DNA from: an uncultured Candidatus Saccharibacteria bacterium
Lineage (GTDB): Bacteria > Patescibacteriota > Minisyncoccia > Phycocordibacterales > XYD1-FULL-46-19
NCBI GenBank assembly: GCA_964639285.1
Contig: CAZXCI010000001.1
Span: forward strand, 285,757 to 337,069
Direction of reading: 5' to 3'
Length of the DNA stretch: 51,313 nucleotides
Shown in pieces: positions 43,814 through 49,549 of this stretch. Below the pieces are notes generated by a model that ran no database searches, had not been told where the DNA came from, and was given only the letters and a program-made list of their open reading frames with translations. Numbering within the stretch: position 1 is the stretch's first letter; each line of letters starts with the position of its first letter. Made by a program: the position numbers and the translations under genes.

Positions 43814-43891
43814 CCTCTAATTCTATCACAAATTGCTTTTTGGCAAAATTTGGGTAAAATATAAGAGGTTCCTAATCTGAATAGCAGACGG

Positions 43892-43973
43892 GCCGGAGTG
43901 ATGAAATTGGTAAACATGCACGACTCAAAATCGTGTGCCGCAAGGTTTGTGGGTTCAAGTCCCACCTCCGGCA
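43892..43973 (+). tRNA. tRNA-Leu (anticodon CAA), long variable arm, CCA not encoded
   Basis: Acceptor GCCGGAG/CTCCGGC, anticodon stem CACGA/TCGTG with loop CT-CAA-AA, T-arm GTGGGTTCAAGTCCCAC. Confidence 0.95.
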
Positions 43974-44554
43974 CTTTCAAAAAATATTCCCAAAAAGAGA
44001 ATATTGCATATCTCGTAGGTCTATCATTGGGTGATGGCAATTTATCTAACCCGAACGGACGAGCAGTGAGATTGCGTATCACTTGTGACAAAAAGTACCC
44101 CGAATTAACAAGGAGGATAATTTTGTTACTTCAAGGCTTGTTTCCTAAAAATAAGATTGGTGTGATAAAACGAAATGATTCTTGTTTAGATATTAGTTGC
44201 TATTCTAATAAGCTGGAGGGGATGTTGGGATGGAAGGCAAAAAATGGTTCAAAAATTAAGCAAAAAGTTGCCATCCCTTCTTGGATTAAAAAGGATGTAA
44301 ATTATATTAAACCATGTCTTAGGGGTTTGATTGAAACTGACGGTTCCATCTATCAAGACCATAAATATTTAATGGTAAATTTTGTCACAGTTATCCCGAA
44401 TTTAGCTAGCGACTTTGTTTTGTTGGTTCAAAAACTTGGCTATACTTGCAACACCAAAATTAATCAACCCAAAATCGGCCTGGCCAAATATACAATTCGT
44501 ATCTCACGAAAAACAGAGGATTTTATAAAACTAATCGGCATTGACAAGAATTGA
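43901..44554 (+). CDS. Two-motif LAGLIDADG homing endonuclease; start codons lie inside tRNA-Leu
   Basis: AYLVGLSLGDG and CLRGLIETDG motifs; true start uncertain. Confidence 0.82.
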   Translation: MKLVNMHDSKSCAARFVGSSPTSGTFKKYSQKENIAYLVGLSLGDGNLSNPNGRAVRLRITCDKKYPELTRRIILLLQGLFPKNKIGVIKRNDSCLDISCYSNKLEGMLGWKAKNGSKIKQKVAIPSWIKKDVNYIKPCLRGLIETDGSIYQDHKYLMVNFVTVIPNLASDFVLLVQKLGYTCNTKINQPKIGLAKYTIRISRKTEDFIKLIGIDKN

Positions 44555-44771
44555 TGCCTACAGACACGCAGGTCCAAAAAAAATTAAACCCTCTCCCATT
44601 TGACAGCTGAGGCAAAGACGTTTAGTTCTTGGCTGTGTTGCTCTGGTGTCGCCCGGATAGTGGCAAATCTCTCTTGGCCAGGAGTCCAAGTGGAAGTATT
44701 AATGTCCTCAAGAAAATTATTAATCTTTGAATTTTTCTTACCTTGAATTATAAATGTGAAAAATTCCTGAA

Positions 44772-44808
44772 CCGGATATGCCGTGTTGTGCGATGCCCGC
44801 ATTTGCCC
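44772..44808 (-). other. Half attC-like site (R''/L'' side only) and distal inverted arm of cassette 3
   Basis: Minus strand GCACAAC-ACGG-CATATCCGG; 44785-44808 is inverted relative to 45449-45472 (19/24). Confidence 0.55.
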
Positions 44809-44844
44809 GCCCTTGTTAATGGCACGAATGGATGCCCTGAAATC

Positions 44845-45423
44845 CTATTGCAAAATCTTTTCCAACAATTCAGGAAACTCCTCGGTTTTCATATCTCCCA
44901 AGCAATAATGCCCTCGCCCTGACAGTTCAACAATCTCGCCACCAAGCACCTCATGAAAAATTTTTAAACTTTTTTTGCCGTCATCTTCCTCGTCATCGGC
45001 GGTGAATATCACTATTTGATTGATTCTATCTTTAATTGTTGGGTCAATCGGATAAGTGTAAAAATCCACATCTGCGCCATTTCTTTTTTCTTGCGGAATT
45101 TTCCAAGGCGCGACTAAAAAAAGTTTAAAAATTTTGGTCTTAGTCTCACCAAGCCAGCGAACCAAGAAAGCGCAACCGCAACTATGTCCTACCAAAATCG
45201 TGTTTTCATTAACAGCATATTTTTCAAATTCAGCTTTGAATTTTTCATAATCAGGTTGCCAGGGTGAGGGCATGAGAGGAGTTTCCGTCTCAATATTTTT
45301 TGCAATAAGATTTCTTTTTGTCCACGGAATCCAGTGTTTATCATAAGTTCTTGTTTCTGGATTCATCGCTTTTTCAGCATCAGAGGGGCATCCATGGATT
45401 ATTATACAGTTTTTCATTGTCAT
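44845..45423 (-). CDS. RBBP9/YdeN family alpha/beta hydrolase (cassette 3)
   Basis: IIHG, VGHSCG nucleophile elbow, LVAPW, DDE, RGH. Confidence 0.9.
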   Translation of the reverse strand: MTMKNCIIIHGCPSDAEKAMNPETRTYDKHWIPWTKRNLIAKNIETETPLMPSPWQPDYEKFKAEFEKYAVNENTILVGHSCGCAFLVRWLGETKTKIFKLFLVAPWKIPQEKRNGADVDFYTYPIDPTIKDRINQIVIFTADDEEDDGKKSLKIFHEVLGGEIVELSGRGHYCLGDMKTEEFPELLEKILQ

Positions 45424-45465
45424 ATGGTTAAATGTTATTTTAGCACTAGGGCAAATGCGGATTTC

Positions 45466-45559
45466 TCACATCGTTAGGGATATGAGAAGTTGCGACCGAA
45501 GGGAGCAATTTGGGTGGAGAAGTCTGCAAGACTTCGTAACCTCATATCCCTTGTTATAT
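45466..45559 (-). other. attC-like recombination site 2 (94 bp)
   Basis: Minus strand ATATAAC-AA-GGGATATGAG ... CTCATATCCC-TAAC-GATGTGA, with two internal hairpins. Confidence 0.72.
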
Positions 45560-45646
45560 TCCCCGAAGGGCTGAAATTTAGTGCAACGTCCCGAAGGGAA
45601 ATTTCAGAGTTGTCGTGTCTAAAATAAAATTGTAGTCGGATACACA

Positions 45647-46684
45647 TTAATCTTCAAATATTTTTTCAATCAATTTAAATTCTTTTTTATGGCAATCAAA
45701 CTCGACTTTTATTCCTAATGGCAAAATCCATTGAGGGTCTGTATGTCCAAAATCCATATTCGTTATAATCGGAAGACTTGAATTGTGAAATTCTGTATTA
45801 ACCACATTGAGAACATTTTCGTTTAAACTTTTCTTTTCATCTTCAGAATAGTCCCTTGGTCTTCCGATGAGCAATGCGGATATTTTGTCAAACACCCCTT
45901 GCATTCCATAGTTTCGTAACATCCATTTGACTTGGTCTGGAGATGGCTTGTCTTCAGATGTTTCTAAGAAAAGGATTTTGCCATTCCAAAAATCATCATT
46001 AGACCAATATTTTGTGCTTTTCATAAATTCAAGAACTTCAATACAGCCACCAAATAATTCTCCTTGAACTTTTGAACTGCCCTGCAAAATATTCCAACCT
46101 GTGTTTTTTGACATTGGTTTTACTTGTCCAACATTGGACTTGTCACCCCAATCTAAATATCCCTCTGCGTAAGAATCATATGGTTTGTATTCATAATTTG
46201 CAGGATTTTCAAATAGAATTGTTTTGATATGCTCTTGAAAATTTGTACCTAATGCATCCCATTGAGAAAATCCTGCCATGATTGCAGGACCATGTAGAGT
46301 GACAAGTCCTAATTGATTAAAGTATGTCAAAAGAGTGGTTGTATCAGAATATCCAATAATGATTTTTGGGGTTTTTCGAATTATTTCTGCATTTAGAAAA
46401 GGCATTATTCTTACGGAATCATCTCCGCCTATTGATACAAAAATCGCTTTAACTTCTTCATCAGCAAAAGCATCATTTATGTCTTTGGCTCTAAATTCTG
46501 GATTTTTGTAAAGATAATCTGCGTCTTTTCTTGCGGAGGGATATTCTTTAATTTTAAGACCTAAATTTTCAAGTGTCTTAATGCCTGATTCATAAATATG
46601 AGGAAAAACACTTGGGCCTCCCCACGATGGAGATACGACTGCAATGGTATCTCCTTTTTGTAATTTTTTTGGTTTGATTGCCAT
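45647..46684 (-). CDS. S66 peptidase (LD-carboxypeptidase/MccF-like) (cassette 2)
   Basis: GDTIAVVSPS, IGGDDS, IGYSDTT, LFLETSE, DFGHTDP. Confidence 0.92.
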   Translation of the reverse strand: MAIKPKKLQKGDTIAVVSPSWGGPSVFPHIYESGIKTLENLGLKIKEYPSARKDADYLYKNPEFRAKDINDAFADEEVKAIFVSIGGDDSVRIMPFLNAEIIRKTPKIIIGYSDTTTLLTYFNQLGLVTLHGPAIMAGFSQWDALGTNFQEHIKTILFENPANYEYKPYDSYAEGYLDWGDKSNVGQVKPMSKNTGWNILQGSSKVQGELFGGCIEVLEFMKSTKYWSNDDFWNGKILFLETSEDKPSPDQVKWMLRNYGMQGVFDKISALLIGRPRDYSEDEKKSLNENVLNVVNTEFHNSSLPIITNMDFGHTDPQWILPLGIKVEFDCHKKEFKLIEKIFED

Positions 46685-46758
46685 ACTATTTTGATGAATT
46701 GATTGATTTATATAATTTGTGCACCCGACTACTCCTAATTAATTTACACGACAATTGA

Positions 46759-46908
46759 ATATAACGTTTCTGAATATGAGAAGTTTTTGCCCGCCTCCTT
46801 ATTATATTTAAAAAGAAGAAAAGGGCAAAAATTTGGGTAAAAAATGAAATTCAAGTCCAGAATCATATAAATGTGAATTTCATTTTTTCCTCATATTCGG
46901 TGTTGTGC
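46759..46908 (-). other. attC-like recombination site 1 (150 bp)
   Basis: Minus strand GCACAAC-ACC-GAATATGAG ... CTCATATTC-AGAAAC-GTTATAT; internal hairpins 46784-46831 and 46839-46888. Confidence 0.78.
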
Positions 46909-47032
46909 GATGTAAATTTTTTATCTCGTTGTTTATTGAGCTAATCTTTATGCTAATAATAGAAAATTTGATTTTTTGTTTTTAAAAAATGGAAGAGTGG
47001 CAGGGGTGAATTCCATTTTTTAAAAACTCCCC

Positions 47033-47659
47033 TTAGTTACCGTCTTTTTGTCGAAAGTAATCTTCTCTCTGTTGAATCAACCTCTTTGCCTCAGTTTTGC
47101 CGAATTCAGTAATAAACTTAGGAATTCTTGTCTCGAGCATTGCCTTCATGAATTTTTTATTTGACACGGCATCATATGCTGGTTTACCAGCGCTAACCTG
47201 TAAAGCGCTTAACATATCGGCCTCCATTAAAACTAACTCGTCAGTATCTTTAATTTCAAACTTTTTATCATGAACTGCCACAAGGTGAATGCAGCGATTT
47301 TTTTGCGAATCAGTCAAAAACGAAAAGAAATCGTCTTGCAATAAAGCTGCTATTTTCTTCGCACCCAATTCCATATGCAATTGTTTGGCATTTTCTACAA
47401 TTTCAAAATTCATAACTTGGCTCTCTTTGAATATGTCAGAATAACCCCAATCGTGGGCATAAGCTGCGATTACCAAAATATTTCTATCGAGATTAAACTG
47501 GGGATTATGATCTATAATCTGTTTAATCCAACTAATCACCTCCAGCGTGTGTACCTTATCAAAACCACCACGACTTTTTTCTAAATCAGGCAATATTTTT
47601 TCTTTCAGATACTCTTCTATCTTATTTAACTCCATATTCATAAAAATTAAAAACAACAT
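47033..47659 (-). CDS. HD-domain protein (cassette 1)
   Basis: H...AHDWG...H...AD pattern; GAGG SD before ATG 47659 (alternative start 47635). Confidence 0.8.
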   Translation of the reverse strand: MLFLIFMNMELNKIEEYLKEKILPDLEKSRGGFDKVHTLEVISWIKQIIDHNPQFNLDRNILVIAAYAHDWGYSDIFKESQVMNFEIVENAKQLHMELGAKKIAALLQDDFFSFLTDSQKNRCIHLVAVHDKKFEIKDTDELVLMEADMLSALQVSAGKPAYDAVSNKKFMKAMLETRIPKFITEFGKTEAKRLIQQREDYFRQKDGN

Positions 47660-47729
47660 TAAACCCCTCACTATAAAATAAAAATCAAAATTTCTTCGTT
47701 GTTTGATGCGCCGAACTTTGATTTGCCAC

Positions 47730-47772
47730 CGAGATAAAAAATTTATTTCGCACAACTCGTTTCTATACGAAT
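47730..47772 (-). other. attI-like junction at the start of the cassette array
   Basis: Minus strand TCGTATAGAAACGA-GTTGTGC; 47730-47756 is inverted relative to 46902-46928 (25/27). Confidence 0.6.
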
Positions 47773-47872
47773 TAATTTATGATATAATACTTAAAATGGT
47801 GTTTTATGCGAATATCAAATCAAGCCTTCACTTTTGATTCTTTGGTTAATTATACCAAATAAAACATATAAT

Positions 47873-48685
47873 ATGCAATTATTCCTCCAAAAGATGGAAA
47901 TTGAACTTAAAATCAGGAATTATAGCCCCAGAACACTCGAGGCCTATTTGGCTTGCATGAAGGATTATTTTGAATATAAACAAATAAATCTAGATAAATT
48001 AGATCAGGATAATATCCGTAGTTATCTGCTGCAGAAGCAAGGCAAAAACTACTCACCCCAGACTATAAATCTCTATCTAAACGCCATTAAATTCTTTTAC
48101 CATGATATAATTAGGTCGATAGAGCCGATTAACGTCAGATTTGCCAAAAGAAATAAGAAGCTTCCAGTGGTTTTAAGTCGGACAGAAATCCAAAAGTTGT
48201 TGTCAGTGATTAAAAATACTAAACATCAATTATTGCTGTCCCTATCTTATGGCGCCGGTTTGCGTGTAAGCGAAGCGGTTGGCTTGAGATTCAAAGATTT
48301 GAATTTAGATGAATTGACTATCCACTTGAAGCAGGCGAAGGGAAAGAAGGATCGCCTGACTTTGATTCCGGAAAAGTTAGTCGATGATTTGCGCAATATC
48401 ATTGCTGGCAAGTCGGGTGACGACTATGTTTTTGCCAGCGAACGAGGAGGCAAATTGACGGAACGCACTGCCCAAAAAGTCTTTGAGAATGCCCTAAAAA
48501 AAGCAGGGATTAAAAAAGACGCCACCTTCCATAGCTTGCGCCATAGTTTTGCCACGCATTTGCTGGAAAACGGGACAGATGTGCGTTATGTGCAGGAATT
48601 GCTGGGCCATGCCAATATCCGAACGACGCAGATTTATACGCACGTTACTAATCCGGCAATTAGAAATATTAAAAGTCCTCTCTAG
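47873..48685 (+). CDS. Tyrosine recombinase with N-terminal SAM-like domain, integron-integrase-like but lacking the IntI insertion
   Basis: RNYSPRT, LPVVLS, GLRVSE, KGKKDR, HSLRHSFATHLLE, LLGH, TQIYTHV; 270 aa; divergent from the array. Confidence 0.92.
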   Translation: MQLFLQKMEIELKIRNYSPRTLEAYLACMKDYFEYKQINLDKLDQDNIRSYLLQKQGKNYSPQTINLYLNAIKFFYHDIIRSIEPINVRFAKRNKKLPVVLSRTEIQKLLSVIKNTKHQLLLSLSYGAGLRVSEAVGLRFKDLNLDELTIHLKQAKGKKDRLTLIPEKLVDDLRNIIAGKSGDDYVFASERGGKLTERTAQKVFENALKKAGIKKDATFHSLRHSFATHLLENGTDVRYVQELLGHANIRTTQIYTHVTNPAIRNIKSPL

Positions 48686-48688
48686 GCG

Positions 48689-49549
48689 ATGAAAAAGAAC
48701 CAAACTAAACCCAAAATCTATGTTATCGTCGGGCCAACCGCCAGTGGCAAGACGGCTTATTCGATCAAGCTAGCCAAAAAAGTAAAAGGTGAGATTATTA
48801 GTGCTGATTCACGCCAGGTTTACAAAGGTTTAGATATCGGCAGTGGCAAAGTGACAAAGAAAGAGATGGCCGGTATTCCCCACCACCTTCTCGATATCGC
48901 CAACCCGAAGAAAGTCTTCACCGTCGCCGACTTTAAAAAACTAGCTGAGAAAAAGATTAGAGAAATATTAGATCGAGGTAAAACACCAATAATTGTCGGC
49001 GGTACCGGTTTCTATATTCAAGCAATTGTTGATGATCTCATTTTGCCAGAGGTCCCACCTGATAAAAAACTACGAGCAGAATTAAAAAAACTCACGACCG
49101 CAAAACTTTTTAATTTGCTGAAGAAACTCGATCCAGCCCGAGCCAAGACAATAGATAGCCAAAATCCCGTGCGTCTAATTAGGGCAATTGAAATTGCTCA
49201 GGTCATGGGTAAAGTCCCTGAGTCTGGACTTCATGATCCACAATATAACTTTGAAGTTATTGGGATTAAGATTCCCCAAGAAAAATTAAATACGAAAATT
49301 CACGAAAGACTGGCCAAACGAATGAAAAAAGGACTCATCGGTGAAGTGAAAAAATTGCATGAGAATGGCCTAAGTTGGAAACGAATGGAGGAATTAGGTC
49401 TCGAGTATCGTTATCTTGGGCGCTTCTTACAAAATAAAATCACTAAACAAGAGATGCTCACCCAACTAGAAAGAGAGATTATTAAATATTCTAAACGCCA
49501 AATGACCTGGTTCAAAAAAGACCAGAGGATTAAGTGGCGAGAAATTTAG
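48689..49549 (+). CDS. miaA: tRNA dimethylallyltransferase
   Basis: GPTASGKT, ISADSRQVYK, PHHLLD, VGGTGFY, YSKRQMTWF. Confidence 0.97.
   Translation: MKKNQTKPKIYVIVGPTASGKTAYSIKLAKKVKGEIISADSRQVYKGLDIGSGKVTKKEMAGIPHHLLDIANPKKVFTVADFKKLAEKKIREILDRGKTPIIVGGTGFYIQAIVDDLILPEVPPDKKLRAELKKLTTAKLFNLLKKLDPARAKTIDSQNPVRLIRAIEIAQVMGKVPESGLHDPQYNFEVIGIKIPQEKLNTKIHERLAKRMKKGLIGEVKKLHENGLSWKRMEELGLEYRYLGRFLQNKITKQEMLTQLEREIIKYSKRQMTWFKKDQRIKWREI

Follow-up and report, generated by a model that had tools for sequence, protein, structure and literature searches.

A LAGLIDADG endonuclease family flush against tRNA-Leu(CAA) in Patescibacteria, and a member that appears to lack a start codon

INTRODUCTION

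How might a protein be made from a gene whose only canonical start codons lie inside a tRNA gene? The question is raised by an open reading frame (ORF) in an uncultured Candidatus Saccharibacteria bacterium, the genome of which is of the Patescibacteria type (709 kb, 99.96% complete). The ORF encodes a LAGLIDADG endonuclease and abuts a tRNA-Leu gene, an arrangement that its relatives share in more than a hundred further species. It lies in the window, as we call the whole stretch of 51,313 nucleotides that was analysed (assembly GCA_964639285.1, contig CAZXCI010000001.1, positions 285,757 to 337,069); all coordinates below are those of the window. A reading of the window made earlier from the letters alone, here called the sequence-only reading, offered two answers. 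Either the precursor tRNA doubles as an mRNA, such that tRNA processing competes with translation and limits a toxic nuclease, or a free-standing homing endonuclease borrows the tRNA promoter and homes to the tRNA 3' flank. Here, we compare the locus with its relatives and with the rest of its genome. We think it probable that the gene is a mobile endonuclease of the tRNA-Leu(CAA) flank, that it is expressed by read-through from the tRNA, and that its start codon is mutated in the window.

RESULTS

The endonuclease frame runs back through an uninterrupted tRNA gene

The tRNA-Leu(CAA) gene occupies positions 43892 to 43973 of the forward strand and is uninterrupted (Rfam RF00005, 60.8 bits; ARAGORN called 43892 to 43974). 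The discriminator is the A at 43973; C and T come next, and the gene encodes no CCA. Starting at 43865, the endonuclease frame stays open until a TGA at 44552 to 44554 and therefore passes through the tRNA, where five canonical start codons lie in frame between 43898 and 43951: GTG 43898, ATG 43901, TTG 43907, ATG 43916, and GTG 43949, the last in the variable arm/T arm. From 43974 to the first LAGLIDADG helix, ATG, GTG, and TTG are absent in frame, and the sole near-cognate codon is the ATT of codon 10 (44003 to 44005). The next canonical codon in frame, TTG 44027, is already within motif 1. All of this agrees with the sequence-only reading, which had noted the open frame, the starts inside the tRNA, and the lone ATT.

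Ten codons free of starts have a chance of about 0.6 and so are not improbable alone. The gap is noteworthy because coding constraint extends right up to the tRNA end. Moreover, the start codons inside the tRNA are by-products of the tRNA sequence, namely, of U8-G9, the AUG/CAU D stem, and the UUGG of the D loop, and in the window copy we treat them as candidate starts only.

An intron or ribozyme was not found at the locus, as Rfam at an E value of 1 or less returned the tRNA alone. Likewise, blastn-short found neither a displaced tRNA fragment nor a target-site duplication within 5 kb on either side. The searches thus bear out the earlier statement that no intron or duplicated tRNA half is visible. 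A putative promoter common to the tRNA and the endonuclease lies on the forward strand at 43833 to 43860, 31 nt upstream of the 5' end of the tRNA, and consists of TTGCTT (43833 to 43838), a 16-nt spacer, and TAAAAT (43855 to 43860). It was read by eye, and a consensus promoter scan gave no forward-strand match over threshold. The promoter block aaattgctttttggcaaaatttgggtaaaat is kept upstream of the tRNA in G002, L131, L132, L133, and L135.

The ORF encodes a predicted monomeric LAGLIDADG homing endonuclease

The coding region that is conserved among relatives spans 43976 to 44554 on the forward strand (192 codons plus TGA) and is of the monomeric two-motif type. Its first conserved codon is the TTC at 43976 to 43978, at position +3 from the discriminator, and we number the protein from there. 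Motif 1 (LVGLSLGDG, 44012 to 44038) carries Asp20 and motif 2 (LRGLIETDGS, 44318 to 44347) carries Asp122, both at catalytic positions. In the family alignment (A1), G19, D20, and G21 of motif 1 and T121, D122, G123, and S124 of motif 2 are invariant. Mean column identity in the same alignment is 69% and 51 columns are invariant, more conservation than is usual among homing endonucleases. The Pfam model PF14528 (LAGLIDADG_3) matched the second half of the protein only (33.2 bits, against a cut-off of 22.5). The WhiA Pfam model stayed under its cut-off, and the protein has no helix-turn-helix (HTH) domain. The window genome holds one copy of the gene.

An AlphaFold model of the protein (pLDDT 89, pTM 0.87) has the predicted fold alpha-beta-beta-alpha-beta-beta-alpha twice over and is pseudo-dimeric. 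No PDB entry matched by sequence at an E value of 0.01 or less. By fold, the top Foldseek match in the PDB was I-DmoI (TM score 0.71 to 0.77, E value 1.4e-9, about 21% identity), and the endonuclease domain of PI-SceI was matched as well. Helix 1 of the model comprises residues 6 to 20. Thus, the stretch right after the tRNA is structural, and a start at ATT 44003 would cost four residues of the helix.

On the motifs and the model, we conclude that the ORF encodes an I-DmoI-like, monomeric homing endonuclease of the LAGLIDADG type, with DNA cleavage as its predicted activity, and that the gene is free-standing. It does not belong with the endonucleases encoded by introns or inteins: the tRNA is uninterrupted, extein flanks are absent, and the insert is essentially the ORF.

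The family has tRNA-Leu(CAA) as its address

Homologues of the endonuclease number 1108, and nearly all are labelled as Patescibacteria lineages. Loci were surveyed in the best 80 of 185 by score, a sampling biased against broken copies, and the close relatives of the window's clade were gathered by exact-protein look-ups, as a metagenome scan alone gave 3 loci. Among the best 80 of 185, ARAGORN placed tRNA-Leu(CAA) as the nearest upstream tRNA on the same strand in about 65 of the 76 loci that bear the motif, and the distance from its end to the first GDG motif was 43 to 108 nt. The remaining loci were mostly contig ends or masked sequence. Upstream, parB (often with parA) is widely kept; downstream, the neighbours vary, and miaA follows in a subset.

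Several gene calls in relatives include translated tRNA at their beginning, such as MKLVNMHDSKSCAARFVGSSPTSGT... or ...WEFESPPGHQ.... That the frame runs on into the tRNA is thus a recurrent annotation artefact of flush abutment. The sequence-only reading had asked whether genes that both abut a tRNA and lack a start recur among homologues. The first half recurs, at more than 60 loci, and the second is atypical, as only 10 of 78 loci are without a start (see below). We conclude that these genes form a Patescibacteria family with the 3' position of tRNA-Leu(CAA) as its address. The family is apparently undescribed; full-text searches of the literature gave no account of a LAGLIDADG family linked to tRNA-Leu or of leaderless, tRNA-abutting genes in CPR bacteria.

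The gene is sporadic and a tRNA allele is statistically linked to it

A true orthologue was found in 1 of the 9 genomes of the window's genus, in 2 of 41 relatives, and in 5 of the 401 genomes of a phylum sample (about 1%). In same-genus genomes without the gene, tblastn detected no remnants. A phage or viral vector was considered and dropped, as neither GenBank phages nor IMG/VR viral contigs held a copy.

Gene order in the genus is relA/HD, parB, tRNA-Leu, miaA, and tRNA-Trp, and both empty and filled sites occur. In G005, the site is empty and miaA begins about 17 nt past tRNA-Leu. Filled sites include those of G000 and G030. The order tRNA, endonuclease, and miaA is seen in G030 and in loci L002, L130, L133, L045, L052, L061, and L065, and in all of them the miaA start is at most about 25 nt from the endonuclease stop or overlaps it. 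Thus, the insert is essentially the ORF alone. In the window, a variable segment (44555 to 48688) that is missing in relatives, with no DNA match there, separates the endonuclease from miaA. It contains a Ser_hydrolase gene (44845 to 45423, reverse strand), an LD-carboxypeptidase gene (45647 to 46684, reverse), ORF240 (47033 to 47755, reverse), and a tyrosine recombinase gene (47834 to 48685, forward), the three named genes being Pfam assignments. The miaA gene follows at 48689 to 49549 on the forward strand and by blastp is 66 to 76% identical to that of relatives; its homologues carry Pfam IPPT.

Endonucleases and hosts are related in different ways. Within the clade, identity to the window endonuclease is 68 to 77% and does not track ParB identity, which is 58 to 88%. 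The clade tree of the endonuclease is star-like, and host incongruence is judged here by endonuclease identity against ParB identity. The linked tRNA-Leu allele is 95 to 100% identical across the same hosts, whereas same-genus genomes without the endonuclease, with ParB 76 to 95% identical, carry another allele with 76 to 87% identity. The two differ in the D arm, which reads GTGATGAAATTGGTAAACATG in the linked allele, including that of the window, and GTGGCGGAATTGGTAGACGCG in the same-genus genomes without endonuclease.

The D arm of the linked allele occurs in 4 of the 401 phylum genomes, two of which have the endonuclease, and in roughly 40% of endonuclease-bearing loci. About half of those loci have ordinary D-arm alleles, and G280 and G375 have the linked allele and no endonuclease. 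Thus, the linkage of allele and gene is a statistical one. In G006, the endonuclease is absent, and the linked allele runs into CCTTGAAA, with which the clade ORF begins. We also considered the D-arm allele as a supplier of an in-frame ATG for the endonuclease and dropped the idea, as the allele is found beside endonucleases in all three frames and in two genomes that have no endonuclease.

These comparisons are consistent with homing in which the tRNA gene is co-converted. A break made by the nuclease in or beside the tRNA gene and repaired with co-conversion of the flanks would yield such a pattern, and the gene would spread horizontally as an ORF-sized insert of about 580 to 600 bp that often takes the tRNA-Leu allele along. 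The second proposal of the earlier reading, a free-standing nuclease tied to the tRNA 3' flank, is in this respect well supported by the more than 60 loci, the patchy spread, the incongruence with hosts, and the travelling allele.

Relatives start next to the tRNA end, and so do other genes of the genome

Where the endonucleases of other loci start was surveyed in 78 loci. The first in-frame start past the discriminator was at +2 (8 ATG and 7 TTG) or at +3 (7 ATG and 5 TTG) in 27 of them, and it was within +7 in 40, often overlapping an encoded CCA. In 10 loci there was no start, and 2 of the 10 are visibly broken; L053 and L060 have their visible breaks near the N terminus. The gap between the tRNA and the family start is too short to hold a promoter or ribosome-binding site of the gene's own, which favours the earlier suggestion that the tRNA promoter is borrowed.

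Other genes of the genome share the habit. Shine-Dalgarno-like 4-mers precede 8% of ORF starts and 8% of control positions, and hexamers resembling a -10 element peak genome-wide 12 nt upstream of start codons. A long ORF starts 0 to 6 nt after 9 of the 45 tRNAs. Random positions gave 2.8 such cases on average and at most 7 over 200 trials, and the antisense control gave 1. Eight of the nine belong to clear Pfam families: a release factor, a class IV aminotransferase, MgsA, TspO, a methyltransferase, two VTT-domain proteins, and RNHCP. Moreover, parB starts 5 to 13 nt past an inverted tRNA-Leu in four relatives. The endonuclease would be transcribed by read-through from the tRNA promoter, and the cleavage that matures the tRNA at its 3' end would release an mRNA whose start codon stands 1 to 6 nt from the 5' end. 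The flush starts, the lack of a Shine-Dalgarno signal, and the eight tRNA-abutting genes together suggest that read-through from tRNAs with 3' processing, yielding a near-leaderless mRNA, is likely a general mode of expression. The family and the eight genes have a start near the tRNA end, whereas the window copy has TTC at +3.

Codon 1 has changed repeatedly in an otherwise conserved gene

The clade of the window was sampled at 12 loci with 11 distinct endonuclease sequences (L134 repeats L125). At codon 1, which is position +3, the relatives have TTG five times, CTA three times (L125, L126, and L134), TTA twice, and ATA once, and the window has TTC. On the clade tree, TTG is the ancestral codon, and the TTC of the window is its positional homologue and differs from this clade start by one base. 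At codon 10, the relatives have TTG five times, TTA three times, and ATG and ATC once each, where the window has ATT. Of the 11 clade members, 6 have a codon other than TTG at this place. Each of the six encodes a hydrophobic residue there and keeps T at the second codon position, which none of the 9 base changes touched, a weakly significant bias [(2/3)^9 = 0.026]. Codon 1 therefore looks like a translated sense codon of a leucine-like kind (TTG, TTA, and CTA).

The rest of the gene is intact. Each of the 11 sequenced clade members is exactly 192 codons long and free of indels, and clade dN is about 0.16 with dN/dS at or below about 0.1; dS is saturated, so these ratios are upper bounds only and branch tests based on dS do not apply. 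A set of 108 more distant homologues has 50 columns with conservation of at least 95%, and L125 and L126, which like the window copy have no canonical start, keep all 50. The window copy keeps 49, the exception being R129H, although its terminal branch is long (about 0.3 substitutions per site). The sequence-only reading had named, as the case against itself, homologues with a normal N terminus beside a copy truncated at its 5' end with raised dN/dS. The homologues do have a normal N terminus, but the window copy shows neither truncation nor relaxed constraint, as dN is 0.164 for pairs that contain it and 0.160 for the rest. The sense-like codon 1 and the intact start-less copies make translation seem independent of codon 1. 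Either the codon-1 changes would all be recent, or translation would not depend on that codon.

DISCUSSION

Why the window copy has no start where its relatives have one may be explained by ordinary decay. The copy would recently have lost its start by a change of TTG to TTC, would yield little or no protein, and would stand early in a cycle of invasion, degeneration, and loss. Such decay is compatible with our account of the family and rivals it solely on the fate of the window copy, and we rate it as a serious contender with somewhat less than an even chance. A single base separates codon 1 from the clade start, R129H alters a highly conserved column, L053 and L060 are broken near the same end of the gene, and G006 has seemingly lost the gene and retains the linked allele and the first bases of the ORF. 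Against decay, the ORF is full length and as constrained as its relatives despite its long branch, and two or three more lineages without a canonical start are equally intact. The mutational target for breaking an ORF is far larger than three bases, and so repeated loss of the start in intact genes is unlikely if such a loss is lethal to the gene. Weak initiation at a non-canonical codon past the tRNA, for example, at ATT 44003, is what we would tentatively propose for the window copy if it is translated, a possibility that we hold at rather below even. Initiation within an unprocessed tRNA precursor is, for this copy, unlikely.

A stronger claim is that the RNA has a dual use by design, such that endonucleases of the clade are translated from the GTG, ATG, or TTG codons inside the tRNA on precursors that escape 3' processing. 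Doing so would add 9 to 27 residues (e.g., MKLVNMHDSKSCAARFVGSSPTSGT), and the competition between tRNA maturation and translation would throttle a toxic nuclease. We consider this improbable. In its favour, with TTC instead of TTG at 43976, the codons inside the tRNA are the only canonical starts left in the window, as they are in L125 and L126. Moreover, the frame is open across the tRNA in 8 of the 8 intact loci without a start and in 35 of the 68 loci with one, codon 1 behaves as a sense leucine codon with a constant second position, start-less copies show no loss of constraint, and a GGAG (tRNA positions 4 to 7) stands 8 nt ahead of TTG 43907. The 8 open loci, however, represent about 4 independent clades (P of about 0.07), and all three frames of tRNA-Leu are often open. 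The genome shows no sign of using Shine-Dalgarno sequences, which leaves the GGAG without an evident role, and a tRNA that is folded and rapidly processed is ill suited to initiation. Finally, the same tRNA allele also accompanies endonucleases that lie in frames 1 and 2 and have an ATG or TTG of their own at +2 or +3, and the TTG at +3 is kept in 5 of 11 clade members and in the remnant of G006.

The comparisons show that the start-less look of the window copy comes from flush abutment and a point change and not from an RNA designed for dual use. The first proposal of the sequence-only reading is thus not supported as a design of the family: most relatives start 2 to 7 nt past the discriminator, the allele is found with endonucleases in all three frames, and the TTC is one base off TTG. 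Were initiation inside the tRNA nonetheless to be true, the endonuclease of the clade could dispense with its own start codon, each RNA molecule would end up as a tRNA or else serve as the 5' coding portion of an mRNA, and the dose of a selfish nuclease would depend on tRNA processing.

That the protein has been domesticated for a cellular role at the tRNA-Leu or parB-miaA locus and is no mobile nuclease is very improbable, since the high conservation, the single copy per genome, and the WhiA-like label that source annotations give some relatives (WhiA being a domesticated LAGLIDADG protein) are outweighed by its presence in about 1% of phylum genomes and absence from 8 of the 9 genomes of its own genus, by its incongruence with hosts, by both catalytic-position Asp residues, and by a WhiA match under the cut-off in a protein with no HTH.

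The mobile endonuclease that we prefer has partial counterparts in known systems. I-DmoI, the endonuclease of the 23S rRNA intron of Desulfurococcus mobilis (PDB 2vs8 and 1b24), is likewise monomeric, of about 190 residues, and has an acidic residue in each of two motifs. It differs in being archaeal, intron encoded, and only about 21% identical, whereas the window gene lies outside any intron or intein and after an uninterrupted tRNA. SegB of phage T4 is reportedly a free-standing GIY-YIG endonuclease in a tRNA gene cluster that cuts the rival allele and co-converts flanking markers, such that its own tRNA region is inherited. As with SegB, a tRNA allele travels with the Patescibacteria endonuclease, a possible hint that the enzyme cuts alleles without the endonuclease and spares its own. 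Unlike SegB, the family is LAGLIDADG, resides in bacterial chromosomes, and is bound to a single tRNA species and flush with its 3' end.

In mitochondria, tRNAs punctuate transcripts, and their excision yields leaderless mRNA ends (the model of Ojala, Montoya, and Attardi). The endonuclease family and the eight genes of the window genome resemble this arrangement in their starts 0 to 6 nt past tRNA ends and the lack of a Shine-Dalgarno signal. The differences are that the host is a bacterium, that only some genes are so placed, that processing is presumed from gene positions, and that the window copy has no start at its would-be 5' end. Nearer in phylogeny, insertion sequences in CPR rRNA genes hold LAGLIDADG genes, including LAGLIDADG_3 in 16S rRNA insertions (PMC11270868). 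These share the phylum, the superfamily, and the sporadic spread, but they lie inside rRNA genes, often in group I or group II introns, whereas the tRNA-Leu family is intergenic and linked to a tRNA; the word "tRNA" is absent from that report (PMC11270868).

A homing endonuclease of bacterial chromosomes that would be dedicated to a single essential tRNA gene, with no intron or intein, is a known element at a new address. If the tRNA allele is carried along, the element would in effect be a natural gene drive at a tRNA locus, and this in a phylum whose horizontal exchange is difficult to study. Moreover, a gene flush with its tRNA, in a genome without Shine-Dalgarno signals whose housekeeping genes share the habit, would make a compact test of whether tRNA processing creates translatable mRNA ends in Patescibacteria, and the start-less yet constrained copies raise the question of how initiation works in these organisms.

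Finally, we note a consequence for annotation. Gene callers either extend the endonuclease into the tRNA or truncate the gene. The public call for the window locus (P0009, 143 amino acids) starts at TTG 44123 and has lost motif 1.

Results and Discussion

Genes that begin directly after a tRNA are frequent in the window's own genome (G000). The start of a long ORF lies 0 to 6 nt downstream of 9 of its 45 tRNAs, versus about 2.8 expected, and eight genes at that distance belong to clear Pfam families. They are located at C1:193023, C2:95907, C3:90078, C3:95073, C4:60191, C4:60871, C4:68065, and C4:68864, where C denotes a contig, and encode two VTT-domain proteins, a release factor, a class IV aminotransferase, RNHCP, MgsA, a methyltransferase, and TspO. 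In two of the eight, a CC-ATG start overlaps the encoded CCA. A genome-wide survey of start codons (512 ORFs of at least 150 amino acids) found no enrichment of Shine-Dalgarno-like motifs upstream of the starts (8%, versus 8% in the control), and TAnWWT hexamers peaked at position -12. These two features suggest that initiation in G000 is mostly leaderless or Shine-Dalgarno independent.

Judged against window positions 43814 to 43973, the tRNA-Leu(CAA) gene is inverted by itself in four relatives (L118 in G003, L119 in G004, L120 in G008, and L121 in G010), with parB and miaA on either side. The 3' end of the inverted tRNA is directed towards parB, and the parB ATG lies 5 to 13 nt downstream of the discriminator base. 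The orientation of tRNA-Leu(CAA) would decide which gene the tRNA feeds, miaA or parB. At L142, a locus of the endonuclease-bearing genome G435, about 170 nt of inserted GC-rich sequence (1576 to 1743) lie between the tRNA and the endonuclease, and thus the flush layout can be broken.

The gap between tRNA-Leu and miaA is a variable hotspot within the genus. In the window, a 4.1-kb segment (44555 to 48688), bordered by the endonuclease and miaA and absent from relatives, contains a 240-amino-acid ORF along with genes for a Ser_hydrolase protein, an LD-carboxypeptidase (Peptidase_S66), and a Phage_integrase-type tyrosine recombinase. In G001, G002, and G006, the gap carries differing cargo. At L115 (3659 to 3760), G006 lacks the endonuclease but has the endonuclease-linked tRNA-Leu allele, 98% identical to that of the window. 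After the allele comes CCTTGAAA, which corresponds to the first 8 nt of the ORF region in the clade; the sequence beyond it is unrelated and ORF-free for 700 bp. The linked allele and CCTTGAAA may be a scar of endonuclease loss.

In a short ENA contig (L134, 1 to 120), an endonuclease of the L125 type (L125 is a clade member without a canonical start) is preceded by sequence that is not a tRNA. The homologous stretch starts at CACC|CTAAAA, the last bases of the tRNA. L134 is thus one of two things: a chimera produced during assembly, or an ectopic copy, which would show where the mobile unit ends on its left side. Contigs frequently end within or just upstream of the endonuclease or the tRNA (G030 contigs C118 and C124; loci L011, L030, L039, L050, L071, and L072). 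Such breaks would be expected if populations were polymorphic for the insert and also if co-occurring species shared near-identical tRNA-endonuclease cassettes.
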